A DNA stretch of 23,190 bases from Escherichia coli (GTDB lineage: Bacteria; Pseudomonadota; Gammaproteobacteria; Enterobacterales; Enterobacteriaceae), in NCBI RefSeq assembly GCF_003334815.1, contig NZ_QOWO01000050.1; one strand, 5' to 3'. How positions within the stretch are numbered: position 1 is the stretch's first letter; the number at the start of each line of letters is the position of its first letter. Made by a program: the position numbers and the translations under genes. The notes under the pieces are model-generated. The model saw only the letters and a list, made by a program, of their open reading frames with translations, was not told the origin of the DNA and did no database searches. This document shows, piece after piece, positions 9,942 to 23,190 of this stretch.

Positions 9942-10820
9942 ATGAAACTGGGATTTATTGGCTTAGGCATTATGGGTACACCGATGGCCATTAATCTGGC
10001 GCGTGCCGGTCATCAATTACATGTCACGACCATTGGACCGGTTGCTGATGAATTACTGTCACTGGGTGCCGTCAGTGTTGAAACTGCTCGCCAGGTAACG
10101 GAAGCATCGGACATCATTTTTATTATGGTGCCGGACACACCTCAGGTTGAAGAAGTTCTGTTCGGTGAAAATGGTTGTACCAAAGCCTCGCTGAAGGGCA
10201 AAACCATTGTTGATATGAGCTCCATTTCCCCGATTGAAACTAAGCGTTTCGCTCGTCAGGTGAATGAACTGGGCGGCGATTATCTCGATGCGCCAGTCTC
10301 CGGCGGTGAAATCGGTGCGCGTGAAGGGACGTTGTCGATTATGGTTGGCGGTGATGAAGCGGTATTTGAACGTGTTAAACCGCTGTTTGAACTGCTCGGT
10401 AAAAATATCACCCTCGTGGGCGGTAACGGCGATGGTCAAACCTGCAAAGTGGCAAATCAGATTATCGTGGCGCTCAATATTGAAGCGGTTTCTGAAGCCC
10501 TGCTATTTGCTTCAAAAGCCGGTGCGGACCCGGTACGTGTGCGCCAGGCGCTGATGGGCGGCTTTGCTTCCTCACGTATTCTGGAAGTTCATGGCGAGCG
10601 TATGATTAAACGCACCTTTAATCCGGGCTTCAAAATCGCTCTGCACCAGAAAGATCTCAACCTGGCACTGCAAAGTGCGAAAGCACTTGCGCTGAACCTG
10701 CCAAACACTGCGACCTGCCAGGAGTTATTTAATACCTGTGCGGCAAACGGTGGCAGCCAGTTGGATCACTCTGCGTTAGTGCAGGCGCTGGAATTAATGG
10801 CTAACCATAAACTGGCCTGA
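9942..10820 (+). CDS. glxR: Tartronate semialdehyde reductase (NAD-dependent 3-hydroxyacid dehydrogenase family)
   Basis: 292-aa ORF with an N-terminal Rossmann motif GFIGLGIMGTPMA; RBS AAGAGG; matches GlxR. Confidence 0.9.
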   Translation: MKLGFIGLGIMGTPMAINLARAGHQLHVTTIGPVADELLSLGAVSVETARQVTEASDIIFIMVPDTPQVEEVLFGENGCTKASLKGKTIVDMSSISPIETKRFARQVNELGGDYLDAPVSGGEIGAREGTLSIMVGGDEAVFERVKPLFELLGKNITLVGGNGDGQTCKVANQIIVALNIEAVSEALLFASKAGADPVRVRQALMGGFASSRILEVHGERMIKRTFNPGFKIALHQKDLNLALQSAKALALNLPNTATCQELFNTCAANGGSQLDHSALVQALELMANHKLA

Positions 10821-10988
10821 TACCCGCAATAAAAATGGCCGATATCAGAAAATGAATCGGCCAGCAATATTAAAAAAGAAAGCAGCCAAAGATGTTGCTT
10901 CAGTATTAAAAATAATATTTTTATTTTATTTGTTCCTCATAGCTAGATTAAAACAACGTTATTCGATACGTGAAATTAAGAGGGATTT

Positions 10989-12443
10989 ATGGAACATCAG
11001 AGAAAACTATTCCAGCAACGCGGCTATAGCGAAGATCTATTGCCGAAAACGCAAAGCCAGCGGACCTGGAAAACATTTAACTATTTTACCTTATGGATGG
11101 GTTCGGTTCATAACGTTCCCAATTATGTGATGGTCGGCGGCTTTTTTATTCTCGGCTTGTCTACCTTTAGTATTATGCTGGCAATTATCCTCAGCGCCTT
11201 TTTCATTGCCGCGGTAATGGTATTAAACGGTGCTGCGGGCAGTAAATACGGTGTGCCTTTTGCCATGATCCTGCGTGCTTCTTACGGTGTACGTGGTGCA
11301 CTGTTTCCCGGATTATTAAGGGGCGGAATTGCCGCCATCATGTGGTTTGGTTTGCAATGTTACGCGGGGTCACTGGCCTGCTTGATTCTGATTGGCAAAA
11401 TCTGGCCGGGATTTTTAACTCTCGGTGGTGATTTCACTCTGTTAGGCCTTTCTCTACCGGGCTTAATTACTTTCTTAATCTTCTGGCTGGTCAACGTTGG
11501 TATAGGTTTTGGCGGTGGCAAAGTTTTAAATAAATTCACTGCCATTCTTAACCCGTGCATCTATATCGTTTTCGGCGGTATGGCGATTTGGGCGATTTCA
11601 CTGGTCGGGATCGGTCCAATCTTTGACTACATTCCGAGCGGTATTCAGAAAGCAGAAAACGGTGGCTTCCTGTTCCTGGTGGTGATTAACGCGGTAGTTG
11701 CGGTCTGGGCGGCACCGGCGGTGAGCGCATCCGACTTTACGCAAAACGCCCACTCGTTTCGTGAGCAGGCGCTGGGGCAAACGCTGGGTTTAGTTGTGGC
11801 CTATATTCTGTTTGCGGTCGCCGGGGTATGTATTATTGCCGGAGCCAGTATTCACTACGGCGCTGATACCTGGAACGTGCTGGATATTGTTCAGCGTTGG
11901 GACAGCCTGTTCGCCTCGTTCTTTGCGGTACTGGTTATTCTGATGACAACTATCTCCACTAACGCGACCGGTAATATTATTCCAGCCGGTTATCAGATTG
12001 CCGCCATTGCACCGACAAAACTGACCTATAAAAACGGCGTACTGATTGCCAGTATTATCAGCTTGCTGATCTGCCCGTGGAAATTAATGGAAAATCAGGA
12101 CAGCATTTATCTTTTCCTCGATATTATCGGCGGAATGCTTGGTCCGGTAATTGGTGTCATGATGGCGCATTATTTTGTGGTGATGCGCGGACAAATTAAT
12201 CTTGATGAACTGTATACCGCACCTGGCGATTATAAATATTACGATAACGGTTTTAACCTCACTGCGTTTTCAGTAACTCTGGTGGCCGTTATTTTATCTC
12301 TTGGCGGTAAGTTTATTCACTTTATGGAACCGTTATCGCGTGTTTCATGGTTTGTCGGCGTCATCGTCGCCTTTGCGGCCTACGCCTTATTAAAGAAACG
12401 TACAACAGCAGAAAAAACAGGAGAGCAAAAAACCATAGGTTAA
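10989..12443 (+). CDS. ybbW: Allantoin permease, NCS1 family transporter
   Basis: 484-aa highly hydrophobic ORF with multiple predicted transmembrane segments; RBS AAGAGGG; matches YbbW/AllP in length and context. Confidence 0.88.
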   Translation: MEHQRKLFQQRGYSEDLLPKTQSQRTWKTFNYFTLWMGSVHNVPNYVMVGGFFILGLSTFSIMLAIILSAFFIAAVMVLNGAAGSKYGVPFAMILRASYGVRGALFPGLLRGGIAAIMWFGLQCYAGSLACLILIGKIWPGFLTLGGDFTLLGLSLPGLITFLIFWLVNVGIGFGGGKVLNKFTAILNPCIYIVFGGMAIWAISLVGIGPIFDYIPSGIQKAENGGFLFLVVINAVVAVWAAPAVSASDFTQNAHSFREQALGQTLGLVVAYILFAVAGVCIIAGASIHYGADTWNVLDIVQRWDSLFASFFAVLVILMTTISTNATGNIIPAGYQIAAIAPTKLTYKNGVLIASIISLLICPWKLMENQDSIYLFLDIIGGMLGPVIGVMMAHYFVVMRGQINLDELYTAPGDYKYYDNGFNLTAFSVTLVAVILSLGGKFIHFMEPLSRVSWFVGVIVAFAAYALLKKRTTAEKTGEQKTIG

Positions 12444-18669: not shown

Positions 18670-19719
18670 TTATTGCGCAAAGGGATTTTTCGTTTCGTAT
18701 GACGTGTTATAAAGCGCGTCGGAAATTAAATACTGGTAAATATCATCAACAATTTCGATGCCTTCGACGGCGGCTTTGCGTTGTTTAATATCCTGATCCT
18801 GTCCGGGATAATAAACCTGATTAAAACCGGGCGCGGGGGTAATGGCATTTAATTCGCGCATGGTCTGGCTAAGATGTTGACGGAATAATTCGCTGGAGGA
18901 GAAAAAGTTCGGATTAATAACTATATGTAATTGCCCCAAATTACGCCCTGCGTGTAAATCGTCATACATCGAACTAACCTGTCGCCCGAACGGTAAGCCG
19001 AGTAAGACGCCTGAGAGGACGTCAATCATCATCATCAGGCCATACCCTTTTGGCCCGGCGGCGGGGAGCAGAGCATGTACCGCGAACGGATCGGTTGTTG
19101 GTACACCGTTTTTATCGACCGCCCAGGTATCCGGGATAGACATATTACGCGAGCGGGCGTCGAGCACTTTTCCCCATGCCTGTACGGTAGTCGCCATATC
19201 AAAGGTAAGGATCTCGTCGCCTTCTCCCGGCGCGGCAAAGGCCAGGGGGTTAGTACCGTAGTAAATTTCCGCGCCGCCAAACGGCACCACCATTGGATCG
19301 GACTGGCACATCGAAATGCCAATGAATCCGGCGCGGGCTGCCTGCTGCACAAAATAAGAGATTGCGCCGCTGTGACCCATCCGGCTGATACCGACCACCG
19401 CAACGCCATTTTGCTGGGCGGTTTTGATGGCATGTTCCATACCCATTTTCGCCGCGACCTGTCCGGCGGCATTGTCGGCATGTAAAATTGCCGAGCACGG
19501 CCCGGTTTCCTCAAGACGAAACTCCGGTTCGCGGTTGGTGCCGCCTTTTGAAATGCGTTCCGCGTAGTATTCCACGCGCACCGCGCCATGAGAGTGGATC
19601 CCTCTGGCATCGGCGTAAACCAATACTTCAGCCACGGTTGCAGCGTGCTCACGTTTTAACCCAGCCTGGCAGAGTTTATTCTCAATTAGCTGGTGGAGTG
19701 TTTCCCGACTGATTTTCAT
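18670..19719 (-). CDS. allD: Ureidoglycolate dehydrogenase (NAD-dependent, Ldh_2 family)
   Basis: 349-aa ORF with ATG at 19717-19719; matches AllD; first gene of the minus-strand allDCE operon. Confidence 0.9.
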   Translation of the reverse strand: MKISRETLHQLIENKLCQAGLKREHAATVAEVLVYADARGIHSHGAVRVEYYAERISKGGTNREPEFRLEETGPCSAILHADNAAGQVAAKMGMEHAIKTAQQNGVAVVGISRMGHSGAISYFVQQAARAGFIGISMCQSDPMVVPFGGAEIYYGTNPLAFAAPGEGDEILTFDMATTVQAWGKVLDARSRNMSIPDTWAVDKNGVPTTDPFAVHALLPAAGPKGYGLMMMIDVLSGVLLGLPFGRQVSSMYDDLHAGRNLGQLHIVINPNFFSSSELFRQHLSQTMRELNAITPAPGFNQVYYPGQDQDIKQRKAAVEGIEIVDDIYQYLISDALYNTSYETKNPFAQ

Positions 19720-19778
19720 CTGTCTTCCTTTTTAACGACGGTGTGAAGCATGACTGCAATTAACATACAGGGAAAATA

Positions 19779-19798
19779 TCTGGATTATGTGATCCAGA
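19779..19798. promoter_or_regulatory. 20-bp palindrome TCTGGAT-TATGTG-ATCCAGA upstream of allD; candidate regulator (possibly AllS) binding site
   Basis: Perfect 7-bp inverted-repeat arms with a 6-bp spacer, ~60 nt upstream of the allD start in the allD/fdrA divergent region. Assignment to AllS is inference only. Confidence 0.35.
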
Positions 19799-19932
19799 CA
19801 GGCAAGAAAATATAGTTAGAATTTATTTGATAATCCGCTCACTTTTAACCTGATTTTTAAAACAACCACGCTTATTAAAAAATAATGAGTAATAGCCTGG
19901 CGGTTATTTGAATTCTTTTGTTAATAATTCCT

Positions 19933-19948
19933 GTGTGATATTCATCAC
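19933..19948. promoter_or_regulatory. CRP-like site TGTGA-tattca-TCACc upstream of fdrA
   Basis: Matches the CRP core TGTGA-N6-TCACA at 9 of 10 core positions, ~95 nt upstream of the fdrA ATG. Confidence 0.35.
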
Positions 19949-20035
19949 CTTATTTACTCGTTGTCATCGATACCGTAATCGCCACATTAACACTGCTCGT
20001 GCAATTGCCATGGGTGCAATTTTTAAGGAGTTGTT

Positions 20036-21703
20036 ATGATCCACGCCTTTATTAAAAAAGGGTGTTTTCAGGATTCGGTCAGTTTAATGATTATTTCACG
20101 AAAACTCAGCGAATCAGAAAATGTTGATGATGTTTCCGTAATGATGGGTACGCCCGCCAATAAAGCGTTATTAGATACCACAGGTTTCTGGCATGACGAT
20201 TTTAATAACGCCACGCCGAACGATATTTGCGTGGCAATTCGTAGCGAAGCGGCGGATGCGGGGATCGCGCAGGCGATTATGCAGCAGCTTGAAGAGGCGC
20301 TAAAACAACTGGCGCAGGGGTCAGGCAGCAGCCAGGCGTTGACGCAGGTGCGTCGCTGGGACAGTGCCTGTCAGAAATTACCCGACGCCAGTCTGGCGCT
20401 GATTTCAGTGGCTGGCGAGTATGCGGCGGAGCTGGCGAACCAGGCGCTGGATCGCAACCTCAACGTGATGATGTTCTCCGATAACGTCACGCTGGAAGAT
20501 GAAATCCAACTTAAAAGCCGCGCGCGGGAAAAAGGCTTGCTGGTGATGGGGCCGGACTGCGGTACGTCGATGATTGCCGGCACGCCGCTGGCTTTTGCTA
20601 ACGTGATGCCGGAAGGCAATATTGGCGTCATTGGCGCTTCCGGTACCGGGATTCAGGAACTGTGTTCGCAGATTGCGCTGGCAGGGGAGGGAATTACTCA
20701 CGCGATTGGCCTTGGCGGGCGCGACCTCAGCCGTGAAGTGGGCGGCATCAGTGCGCTGACGGCGCTGGAAATGCTCAGTGCAGACGAGAAAAGCGAAGTG
20801 CTGGCATTTGTTTCAAAACCGCCTGCCGAAGCTGTGCGTCTGAAAATTGTTAATGCCATGAAAGCAACCGGCAAACCGACGGTGGCGCTGTTTTTAGGTT
20901 ATACCCCGGCGGTGGCCCGCGACGAGAATGTCTGGTTTGCCTCCTCGCTGGATGAGGCCGCACGCCTGGCTTGCCTGCTTTCACGCGTTACGGCGCGACG
21001 TAACGCGATAACGCCTGCCAGCAGCGGATTTATTTGCGGTTTGTATACCGGCGGTACCCTGGCTGCCGAAGCGGCGGGATTACTTGCTGGACACCTTGGC
21101 GTGGAAGCCGACGATACCCATCATCACGGCATGATGCTCGACGCCGATGGTCACCAGATTATTGACCTCGGCGATGATTTCTACACCGTCGGGCGTCCCC
21201 ATCCGATGATCGACCCAGCCTTACGCAATCAGTTAATTGCCGATCTCGGCGCTAAACCGCAAGTGCGCGTATTGCTGCTTGATGTCGTGATTGGCTTCGG
21301 TGTGACCGCCGATCCTGCCGCCTCGCTGGTAAGCGCCTGGCAAAAAGCCTGTGCTGCGCGTTCAGACAATCAACCACTGTATGCCATTGCCACGGTGACA
21401 GGCACTGAACGTGACCCGCAATGCCGCTCGCAGCAAATCGCCACGCTGGAAGATGCGGGGATCGCGGTAGTGAGTTCGCTGCCGGAAGCCACCTTGCTGG
21501 CGGCGGCACTGATTCGTCCGCTTTCGCCTGCCACTCAGCAACACACACCGTCATTACTGGAAAACGTCGCCGTGATTAACATCGGATTACGCAGCTTTGC
21601 GCTGGAGCTACAAAGCGCCAGCAAACCGGTTGTGCATTACCAATGGTCGCCAGTCGCCGGCGGCAATAAAAAACTGGCTCGTTTATTAGAACGTTTGCAA
21701 TAA
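20036..21703 (+). CDS. fdrA: FdrA protein (CoA-binding / succinyl-CoA-synthetase-alpha-like fold family), function unresolved
   Basis: 555-aa ORF with RBS AAGGAG; N-terminus MIHAFIKKGCFQDSVSLMIISRKL matches FdrA; first gene of the fdrA-ylbE-ylbF operon. Confidence 0.88.
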   Translation: MIHAFIKKGCFQDSVSLMIISRKLSESENVDDVSVMMGTPANKALLDTTGFWHDDFNNATPNDICVAIRSEAADAGIAQAIMQQLEEALKQLAQGSGSSQALTQVRRWDSACQKLPDASLALISVAGEYAAELANQALDRNLNVMMFSDNVTLEDEIQLKSRAREKGLLVMGPDCGTSMIAGTPLAFANVMPEGNIGVIGASGTGIQELCSQIALAGEGITHAIGLGGRDLSREVGGISALTALEMLSADEKSEVLAFVSKPPAEAVRLKIVNAMKATGKPTVALFLGYTPAVARDENVWFASSLDEAARLACLLSRVTARRNAITPASSGFICGLYTGGTLAAEAAGLLAGHLGVEADDTHHHGMMLDADGHQIIDLGDDFYTVGRPHPMIDPALRNQLIADLGAKPQVRVLLLDVVIGFGVTADPAASLVSAWQKACAARSDNQPLYAIATVTGTERDPQCRSQQIATLEDAGIAVVSSLPEATLLAAALIRPLSPATQQHTPSLLENVAVINIGLRSFALELQSASKPVVHYQWSPVAGGNKKLARLLERLQ

Positions 21704-21712
21704 GGGGTTCCC

Positions 21713-22972
21713 ATGTTTACATCAGTGGCGCAAGCCAATGCTGCGGTTATCGAACAAATTCGTCGCGCTCGTCCACACTGGCTGGATGTGCAACCGGCTT
21801 CTTCACTTATCAGCGAACTAAACCAGGGCAAAACACTGCTTCACGCCGGGCCGCCAATGCGCTGGCAGGAGATGACCGGACCTATGAAAGGGGCGTGCGT
21901 GGGCGCATGTCTGTTCGAAGGTTGGGCGAAAGATGAAGCGCAGGCGCTGGCAATACTGGAGCAGGGGGAAGTGAACTTCATTCCTTGTCACCATGTGAAT
22001 GCCGTCGGGCCAATGGGCGGTATTACTTCTGCCAGTATGCCGATGCTGGTGGTCGAGAACGTGACCGACGGCAACCGGGCGTACTGCAACCTCAACGAAG
22101 GTATCGGCAAAGTGATGCGTTTTGGCGCTTATGGCGAAGATGTCCTGACTCGCCATCGCTGGATGCGCGATGTGTTAATGCCAGTATTAAGCGCGGCGCT
22201 GGGGCGCATGGAGCACGGTATCGATCTCACGGCGATGATGGCGCAGGGCATTACCATGGGCGATGAGTTCCATCAACGCAATATTGCTTCCTCAGCACTG
22301 TTAATGCGTACGCTGGCCCCACAAATTGCTCGCCTCGATCATGATAAACAGCACATTGCGGAAGTGATGGATTTCCTCAGCGTGACCGATCAGTTCTTCC
22401 TCAACCTCGCGATGGCCTACTGCAAGGCGGCGATGGATGCTGGCGCGATGATCCGCGCAGGCAGCATCGTTACGGCTATGACCCGCAACGGCAATATGTT
22501 CGGGATTCGGGTAAGCGGGCTGGGTGAACGCTGGTTTACTGCGCCTGTAAACACTCCGCAAGGTCTGTTTTTCACCGGCTTCTCGCAGGAGCAGGCGAAC
22601 CCGGATATGGGCGATAGCGCGATTACCGAAACCTTTGGTATCGGAGGTGCGGCAATGATCGCAGCGCCTGGCGTAACGCGCTTTGTCGGTGCGGGTGGCA
22701 TGGAAGCGGCCAGGGCGGTATCTGAAGAGATGGCGGAAATTTACCTTGAACGCAATATGCAGTTGCAGATCCCAAGCTGGGATTTTCAGGGCGCCTGCCT
22801 GGGACTGGACATTCGTCGCGTGGTAGAAACCGGTATTACGCCACTCATCAATACCGGTATCGCCCATAAAGAGGCGGGGATCGGGCAGATTGGCGCAGGC
22901 ACCGTGCGGGCACCGCTGGCGTGTTTTGAACAGGCGCTGGAAGCACTGGCTGAAAGCATGGGGATTGGTTGA
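21713..22972 (+). CDS. ylbE: DUF1116-family protein YlbE, intact 419 aa
   Basis: ORF starts 10 nt after the fdrA stop with RBS AAGGGG; continuous 419-aa frame with no frameshift in this window. Confidence 0.85.
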
Positions 22973-22982
22973 GGAACGCACA

Positions 22983-23135
22983 ATGACGATCATCCATCCT
23001 CTGCTTGCCAGTAGTAGCGCACCGAATTATCGCCAGTCCTGGCGGTTAGCGGGAGTGTGGCGACGGGCGATTAACCTGATGACGGAAAGCGGCGAACTGT
23101 TAACGCTGCATCGGGTGATGCTGCCAACTTACTGA
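22983..23135 (+). pseudogene. ylbF: ylbF 5' fragment (carbamoyltransferase-like protein of the fdrA operon) disrupted by an IS1 insertion after about 44 codons
   Basis: ATG at 22983 with RBS GAGGAA 11 nt after the ylbE stop. Native-looking N-terminus [43 protein letters not shown], then the frame runs into IS1 sequence and terminates at TGA 23133-23135 inside the IS1 inverted repeat. Confidence 0.6.
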
Positions 23136-23190
23136 TTTAGCGTATGATGGTGTTTTTGAGGTGCTCCAGTGGCTTCTGTTTCTATCAGCT
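23114..23190 (+). mobile_element. insA: IS1 left end (terminal inverted repeat plus the start of insA); element continues beyond the window
   Basis: Sequence GGTGATGCTGCCAACTTACTGATTTAG(C)GTATGATGGTGTTTTTGAGGTGCTCCAGTGGCTTCTGTTTCTATCAGCT matches the IS1 left end as I recall it, with one mismatch. GTGGCTTCTGTTTCTATCAGC at ~23169 encodes MASVSIS, the InsA N-terminus. Confidence 0.8.

Follow-up and report, generated by a model that had tools for sequence, protein, structure and literature searches.

The allFGH´ genes and their promoter region

The window, by which we mean the whole 23,190-nt stretch of E. coli DNA that was analyzed, begins inside the rhsD repeat and ends 77 nt into an IS1 element, and looks like a short-read contig with repeats at both ends. 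The genes considered here lie close to its right end, where the allF operon is divergent from allDCE:

18670-19719, minus strand: allD, from the list of open reading frames
19720-20035, unstranded: allD-allF intergenic region with the allF operon promoter, 316 nt
20036-21703, plus strand: allF (fdrA), intact, 555 aa, the subunit of oxamic transcarbamylase that resembles the alpha subunit of succinyl-CoA synthetase (SCS-alpha)
21713-22972, plus strand: allG (ylbE), intact, 419 aa, the second oxamic transcarbamylase subunit
22983-23113, plus strand: allH´, the 5´ stub of allH (ylbF), 131 of 816 nt and 44 of 271 residues
22983-23135, plus strand: chimeric ORF of 50 aa, made of 44 AllH residues followed by VMLPTY and a stop codon read from IS1
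23114-23190, plus strand: left end of IS1, read directly, with the terminal inverted repeat GGTGATGCTGCCAACTTACTGAT and the insA start at 23169

The region is very likely the 5´ part of the E. coli allFGHK operon, carrying the genes for oxamic transcarbamylase with allH split by IS1, for which the phenotype of a ΔallH strain would be expected. AllF matches the NCBIfam model NF004760 ('acyl-CoA synthetase FdrA') over residues 1-555 with 1041 bits (cut-off 433), the Pfam families CoA_binding (PF02629, residues 193-287, E 2e-11) and Ligase_CoA (PF00549, residues 336-491, E 1.6e-34), and PDB entry 3DMY ('Protein fdrA', E 1.8e-301). AllG matches PF06545, the former DUF1116 that is now named AllG (E 1.9e-97), while no NCBIfam model matched AllG or AllH. 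These matches bear out the identities given in the initial annotation, which had called FdrA an SCS-alpha-like protein and YlbE a DUF1116 protein. Both genes are free of frameshifts and stops, AllF being identical to the K-12 protein at 544 of 555 residues (11 substitutions) and AllG at 416 of 419 (three substitutions). An antisense ORF of 230 aa inside allG (22301-22993) has no family match and was judged to have arisen by chance, the coding sequence being G+C-rich.

The tight spacing and coupling signals noted earlier for the co-oriented fdrA and ylbE are also present in the sequence: the allG ATG lies 9 nt from the allF stop, with an AAGGGG Shine-Dalgarno sequence overlapping that stop, and the allH ATG (22983) lies 10 nt past the allG stop, which is overlapped by GAGGAA. 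In intact relatives, ylbF (271 aa) is followed directly by the carbamate kinase gene ybcF (allK), which overlaps the end of allH, as the initial annotation had stated for related genomes. The window thus has the same locus downstream of allDCE, the same gene order and the same spacing as K-12 allFGHK (b0518, b4572/ylbE, b0520, b0521), but differs in that IS1 interrupts allH after 131 nt and allK is missing from the window.

The intergenic region is identical to that of K-12 at 313 of 316 positions, with differences at -230, -169 and -135 relative to the allF ATG. The fragments to which AllS (-203/-144) and ArcA (-142/-83) were bound in published EMSA experiments (PMC12535856) correspond here to 19833-19892 and 19894-19953, respectively. 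In the same 2025 study, an allF´-lacZ fusion gave 4,155 Miller units in the wild type, 115 in ΔallS and 102 in ΔarcA, in agreement with the EMSA (PMC12535856). Transcription from this region would therefore be expected to require both AllS, for the allantoin signal, and ArcA, for anaerobiosis. A scan of 19700-23190 for consensus promoters and terminators returned none above the shuffled expectation.

IS1 in allH and the far side of the element

The match to intact allH alleles stops after 23113, at codon 44 of 271, and IS1 begins at 23114; the native next base is T, unlike the IS1 base, which makes the break between 23113 and 23114 a clean one. This agrees with the initial annotation, in which ylbF was described as truncated by IS1. 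The stub matches the start of the intact allH of strain 52F4 (contig L002, 7284-7414) at each of its 131 nt, and it encodes the same 44 N-terminal residues as K-12 YlbF. Positions 23114-23190 in turn match exactly the initial 77 nt of a complete 768-bp IS1 on contig L003 (10132-10899), in which the insA/insB domains PF03811, PF12759 and PF03400 were detected. The element and allFGH share their direction of transcription, matching genome records label the element an IS1 transposase, and the exact 50-aa chimeric product has been deposited from E. coli as CAM9147962.1.

L003 is an NCBI contig of 181 kb that shares 10,208 nt of identical sequence with the window and extends through the full IS1. 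Beyond the element it carries lsrK, lsrR and lsrACDBFG, that is, the lsr region, with allK not adjacent, and the left and right flanks of IS1 (GCTGCATCG and CTGAATTTC, respectively) show no 9-bp target duplication. One reading, which we consider just short of an even chance, is that the strain carries a simple IS1 insertion with a 9-bp target duplication and with the rest of allH and allK immediately after it, and that L003 is a mis-join of two IS1 copies. The window and Logan contig L004 both break off within IS1, in the way that short-read assemblies stop at repeats, and L003 follows the K-12 map co-linearly, such that a single event would have to be a deletion of ~0.55 to 1.6 Mb, which we judge inviable. 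Given that other strains carry IS1 at several nearby sites in the autotransporter/lsrK region, a second IS1 copy there is plausible. Against a simple insertion, the deposited L003 runs across a complete IS1, and exact-sequence look-up of three predicted products of the 3´ part of allH (217 aa from a GTG start, and 235 aa via either IS1 end) returned no entry, which is weak evidence as the allele or gene call may differ; the 217-aa GTG-start call is gene-caller output in strains with the allH nonsense allele Q45* and comes from another allele. If the insertion is simple, the operon is split and polar, with nothing lost or moved.

A second reading, which we hold more tentatively and place somewhat below even, is that IS1 marks a rearrangement breakpoint. 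Multi-step IS1 recombination would have joined allF-allG-allH´ to the 5´ part of an ECSE_1600-type autotransporter gene beside lsrK, and the 3´ part of allH together with allK would be elsewhere or lost. The differing flanks without a target duplication, the neighboring lsr genes, the long identity between L003 and the window and the empty look-up for 3´ allH products are all consistent with such an event. However, L003 is a single contig record, listed for two samples, its orientation is unlike that expected of a single inversion, and the loss of so much DNA in one deletion is judged lethal. In addition, 5,426 complete E. coli genomes were searched for the allH-IS1 and IS1-autotransporter junctions, and both were absent from all of them. 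We consider it unlikely that, in a natural E. coli lineage, this IS1 both marks a breakpoint at which the allantoin cluster meets the lsr region, close to the replication terminus, and counts among many independent hits in allH.

The absence of the allH-IS1 junction from the complete genomes and the ending of the window in a repeat could also point to an assembly or chimera artefact, with allH intact in the organism, but this is highly improbable given the clean break and the recurrence of the junction, base for base, in one NCBI E. coli contig and one independently built Logan contig (listed for two and seven samples). Our verdict is that IS1 in allH represents routine IS1 pseudogenization of a known system.

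Oxamic transcarbamylase chemistry and the AllF fold

The initial annotation had tied these genes to the oxalurate/oxamate branch of allantoin breakdown, and purified AllF-AllG-AllH is indeed an oxamic transcarbamylase, catalyzing oxalurate + Pi <-> oxamate + carbamoyl phosphate (Kim & Kim 2024, PMC11326118). The His-AllF-AllG-AllH preparation had KM values of 1.3 mM for carbamoyl phosphate and 36.9 mM for oxamate, and neither CoA nor a nucleotide was required in the assay (PMC11326118). By RT-PCR, fdrA-ylbE-ylbF-ybcF are co-transcribed, and YbcF (AllK) has carbamate kinase activity (2022, PMC9843812). The allFGH system is therefore already known, its chemistry having been solved in 2024, and the earlier description of the module as poorly characterized, with chemistry that could not be assigned, is out of date with respect to the enzyme and its kinetics (PMC11326118), the operon (PMC9843812) and its regulation (2025, PMC12535856). 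In the pathway, AllF, AllG and AllH together phosphorolyse oxalurate to oxamate and carbamoyl phosphate, and AllK then converts carbamoyl phosphate and ADP to ATP, NH3 and CO2, the step that ends anaerobic allantoin breakdown and yields energy and nitrogen.

The reaction is of the same kind as that of the classical transcarbamylases (ATCase PyrB, OTCase ArgI/ArgF and YgeW), in which a carbamoyl group passes between carbamoyl phosphate and an amine or amide nitrogen. In contrast to these enzymes, AllF-AllG-AllH need three gene products rather than one or two (PMC11326118), and no OTCace_N or OTCace domain was detected by Pfam or NCBIfam in AllF, AllG or AllH, which have no sequence or domain likeness to the classical family.

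Instead, AllF resembles the superfamily of SCS-alpha and NDP-forming acyl-CoA synthetases (SucD, PDB 1CQI/2SCU; ATP-citrate lyase), including a second Ligase_CoA-type domain at residues 336-491. SCS-alpha chains in the PDB match AllF with E-values down to 7.8e-12, and the SGT and IGxGG motifs are conserved where AllF residues 118-291 align to SucD residues 66-239. This alignment ends just ahead of the SucD phosphohistidine loop MGHAGA, where AllF has only AVARD, and AllF residues 223-352 contain no histidine. AllF thus differs from SCS-alpha in lacking the phosphohistidine loop, and also in its partners, which are AllG and AllH rather than an ATP-grasp beta subunit. That the glycine-rich loops are kept and the phosphohistidine loop is lost suggests that catalysis may take place at the remnant of SCS site I in AllF, by direct phosphate attack and without a nucleotide or phospho-enzyme step. 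This proposal is drawn from one sequence alignment and one published variant, FdrA D296Y, which raises activity and is the only such AllF variant published; D296 is the last residue of the AVARD linker. The catalytic site could instead be in AllG or AllH, as neither has characterized structural relatives. The position of D296Y, in the linker that replaces the phosphohistidine loop, provides a concrete site to mutate in studies of the mechanism.

Expected effects on allantoin metabolism

The AllH domain (PF11392) spans residues 158-263 and is wholly outside the 44-residue stub. All 13 residues that are invariant in the AllH family fall between 160 and 259, so that none is in the stub, which likewise lacks the invariant motifs GxGPGLTPSxDD and GHTSGAD. 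A sequence search of the PDB with AllH found no relative. In published work, oxamate reached 17.7 mM in the wild type, 0 mM in ΔallF and ΔallG, and 1.2 mM (about 7%) in ΔallH, which used as much allantoin as the wild type (19.5 mM) and diverted it to oxalate via the glyoxylate branch (PMC11326118). Taken together with the missing AllH domain, this phenotype indicates that the oxamate branch is very probably off in this strain and that growth on allantoin should persist; the activity converting oxalurate and Pi to oxamate and carbamoyl phosphate is predicted to be lost. The initial annotation was right to propose a probable loss of function and polarity. Anaerobic growth on allantoin, which it had suggested as a test, does not discriminate between the possibilities because ΔallH cells consume as much allantoin as the wild type.

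With both genes intact, allF and allG would still be expected to be expressed, and the AllH product would be limited to the 50-residue chimeric stub. IS1 would separate allK from the operon promoter, with a probable polar effect on allK, although a transcript reading outward from or through IS1 could express allK if it lies directly downstream. As in the published ΔallH strain, the oxamate branch would be almost shut, ureidoglycolate would be diverted by way of AllA toward glyoxylate and oxalate, and allantoin consumption would continue.

Some residual activity in this strain is possible, as ΔallH cells still made oxamate and allFG alone restored 7% of the wild-type level, although all three genes were needed for full activity (PMC11326118). 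The same observations could be taken to mean that AllF and AllG by themselves keep a useful activity or have another role, the module being functional without AllH. AllF and AllG here have no disabling changes, and across Enterobacterales AllG is conserved at 72% identity at least, with AllH at roughly 25-67%. We nevertheless find such a role improbable, as single genes yielded no oxamate in the triple mutant and the intact allF and allG may simply mean that the insertion is recent.

Loss of AllH is also seen elsewhere. Other allH null alleles of E. coli and Shigella that keep allF and allG include the Q45* nonsense allele, which gives products of 44 and 217 aa (group P0361; contigs L011-L014), C-terminal truncations (P0007, 464 members), an internal deletion in Shigella sonnei (P0008) and frameshifts (P0003, P0004). 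In the Q45* strains allK still adjoins, and the IS1 lesion described here, one codon before Q45*, is an independent event.

Beyond annotation, the significance of the locus is small. The apt labels are allF, allG and allH´, for oxamate carbamoyltransferase subunits, rather than 'acyl-CoA synthetase', 'DUF1116' and 'DUF2877'. For this strain, the prediction is that the ATP-yielding oxamate branch of anaerobic allantoin use is missing and that the glyoxylate branch is kept. Several lineages of E. coli and Shigella have had allH inactivated in independent events.

Gene layout and the allF promoter region

After the divergent allD gene come three genes, all on the + strand.

Features of the allD-allH region (ORF list and raw sequence; window numbering)
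18670-19719, - strand: allD, divergent from the allF side
20036-21703, + strand: ORF1, allF (fdrA), 555 aa
21713-22972, + strand: ORF2, allG (ylbE), 419 aa
22983, + strand: start of ORF3, allH (ylbF)

Only 9 nt separate ORF1 from ORF2 and 10 nt ORF2 from ORF3, with a Shine-Dalgarno sequence overlapping the preceding stop codon at both gaps (caaTAAggggttcccATG for ORF2, ggtTGAggaacgcacaATG for ORF3), and the tight spacing reported in the initial annotation is therefore correct. ORF1 matches the NCBIfam FdrA model NF004760 end to end (1041 bits; cut-off 433 bits); its further matches are to the Pfam domains CoA_binding and Ligase_CoA and to 3DMY, a crystal structure titled “Protein fdrA”. ORF2 matches PF06545 (E 1.9e-97), a Pfam family once called DUF1116 and now named “Oxamate carbamoyltransferase subunit AllG”. 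Compared to K-12 MG1655, AllF carries 11 substitutions and AllG three, with no frameshifts or stops in either, and ORF3 residues 1-44 are those of YlbF. A 230-aa antisense ORF entirely within allG (22301-22993, - strand) gave no match in a family search and was judged a chance ORF.

The allD-allF intergenic region is 316 nt long and differs from K-12 MG1655 at window positions 19806, 19867 and 19901 (-230, -169 and -135 relative to allF), the last two falling inside AllS and ArcA EMSA fragments. Expression of the operon requires anaerobiosis and allantoin, via ArcA and AllS bound upstream of allF (PMC12535856). The promoter sequence of the window recurs at 100% identity in several other natural E. 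coli strains, so the three SNPs are probably neutral. We also noted an IS1 in the allD-fdrA promoter spacer of strain TUM9812 (L001 3311-4008).

The IS1 junction in allH and its far side

A 3.5-kb query matched several E. coli chromosomes at 100% identity, but only as far as window position 23113 (H21-H25). In the intact relative 52F4, ylbF is 816 nt long and the native base after the common 131 nt is T; in the window, the terminal repeat of IS1 (GGTGATGCTGCCAACTTACTGATTTAG...) begins at 23114 and insA at 23169. Across the junction, the allH'-IS1 frame encodes 50 residues, AllH 1-44 followed by VMLPTY. An exact look-up of this chimeric product returned two contigs, a 181-kb NCBI E. coli contig (L003; protein CAM9147962.1, two samples listed) and a Logan contig (L004; seven samples listed), identical to the window over all common bases (10,208 and 6,631, respectively). 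The junction was absent from all 5,426 complete E. coli genomes searched, although 5,402 of these contain 80% or more of the locus. The allH insertion is real, rare and lineage-specific; the end of the allele match, the IS1 sequence beyond it and the same junction on both contigs confirm the truncation of ylbF by IS1 that had been proposed from the window.

Just 77 nt of IS1 (23114-23190) are inside the window, whose first bases are inside an rhsD repeat (the rhsD core spans the left end, 1-900), so that the window looks like a short-read contig with repeats at both ends. Exactly 77 nt of IS1 fits the k=77 overlap of such a contig, so the limits of the assembly account for part of the “truncation” seen at the right edge.

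L003, the one long public contig with this junction, carries a complete IS1 (768 bp, 10132-10899). To its right is not allH but the 5' part of an ECSE_1600/ESPR autotransporter gene (junction and 5' part, 10132-11600), followed by lsrK, lsrR and lsrACDBFG. The element in the window has the terminal repeat of the IS1 family, while on L003, the sole contig permitting the check, the 9-nt flanks are unequal (GCTGCATCG versus CTGAATTTC), so the element lacks a target duplication. The sequences flanking the L003 element are co-linear with the K-12 map, the allantoin side at ~0.55 Mb and the lsr side at ~1.6 Mb, ~1 Mb apart. As a single event the junction would be a ~1 Mb deletion, which we judged inviable. 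The alternatives left are a rearrangement through IS1 in more than one step and a false join of two IS1 copies by the assembler. Look-ups of predicted 3' allH products returned nothing. Under both scenarios the 3' part of allH and allK, the carbamate kinase gene, are severed from the allF promoter. The autotransporter/lsrK region, which is AT-rich, has IS1 at at least three further, differing positions in other E. coli genomes (L005 6514-7211; L006 5328-6025; H91) and is thus a local IS1 hot spot.

AllF-AllG-AllH function and a possible AllF active centre

The function of AllF-AllG-AllH is established in the literature. Oxamate formation requires each of allF, allG and allH (17.7 mM in the wild type, 0 in delta-allF and delta-allG, 1.2 mM in delta-allH), and a triple mutant was restored only by all three genes, allFG alone giving 7% and allGH 16% (Kim & Kim 2024, PMC11326118). 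The reaction of the purified complex is oxamate + carbamoyl phosphate <-> oxalurate + Pi (KM: carbamoyl phosphate, 1.3 mM; oxamate, 36.9 mM; PMC11326118), and the names AllG and AllH are already in use in RefSeq annotation and Pfam. The initial interpretation thus stands in part: like the gene spacing and the IS1 truncation, its guess of the oxalurate/oxamate branch was right, but its description of the module as poorly characterised, with chemistry that could not be assigned, is out of date. Kinship with ATCase/OTCase was rejected, as a domain search of the three proteins found no such domains.

By fold and domains AllF is a member of the succinyl-CoA synthetase (SCS) alpha superfamily. Residues 118-291 align with 66-239 of SucD, the E. 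coli alpha subunit, with the SGT loop and IGxGG motif kept, and a second Ligase_CoA-type domain spans 336-491. AllF lacks the phosphohistidine of this superfamily, however: the alignment ends exactly ahead of the SucD phosphohistidine loop (PKGKRMGHAGAII...), residues 292-296 (AVARD) are all that precedes the next conserved helix, where SCS-alpha has this loop, and no histidine occurs in AllF 223-352. At site I of SCS, phosphate attacks a thioester to give an acyl phosphate. The one published activity-raising variant, FdrA D296Y (PMC8550087), changes the last residue of the AVARD linker, and D296 is kept in the window. The position of this variant, at the end of the linker replacing the phosphohistidine loop, points to the site I remnant as part of the active centre, and this suggests that the N-acylurea bond may be cleaved by direct phosphorolysis, without a phospho-enzyme.

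Consequences of the AllH truncation

In intact AllH, the Pfam domain of that name spans residues 158-263. Aligning 63 members of the family, which share 23-67% identity with E. coli AllH, gave 13 invariant residues, all of them within G160-G259 and making up the motifs GxGPGLTPSxDD and GHTSGAD. The 44-residue stub has 0 of the 13 and, in a high-confidence model of intact AllH (pLDDT 96.9), corresponds to no more than the opening strands of the N-terminal beta domain. Without the domain and the invariant residues, AllH is predicted to have lost its function, as surely as sequence can indicate. In classical work on the gal and lac operons, IS1 had strong polar effects whichever way it was inserted, so polarity on genes downstream of the element is likely. 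The probable non-function or polar block first suggested for the module agrees with these predictions.

Allantoin consumption was 19.5 mM in both delta-allH and wild-type cells, while oxalate was 10.4 mM in delta-allH and 2.4 mM in the wild type (PMC11326118). By analogy, we expect the oxamate output of the strain to be down to a few percent and oxalate to be up, with allantoin consumption unchanged. Because this consumption is equal in the two backgrounds, the allantoin growth test proposed in the initial annotation would not discriminate between them.

Public sequence data for E. coli and Shigella commonly show independent allH knockouts in other lineages.

Other allH lesions (allele; description)
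Q45* nonsense allele; splits the gene into 44 + 217 aa (L011-L014 3001-3816; P0361), listed in 67 collection blocks
C-terminal truncations; cluster P0007, 464 members
Internal deletion; Shigella sonnei (P0008)
Frameshifts; P0003 and P0004

Strain D53-1, apart from IS insertions ~100% identical to the window, has an IS5 inside allB and an IS1 near ylbG (L007 5725-6422 and 17592-18560).

Compared to the known allFGHK operon, the locus here is the same operon minus most of allH. The system was already known and the IS1 allele is new only in a trivial sense; in allH, IS1 has caused an ordinary pseudogenisation within a characterised operon.
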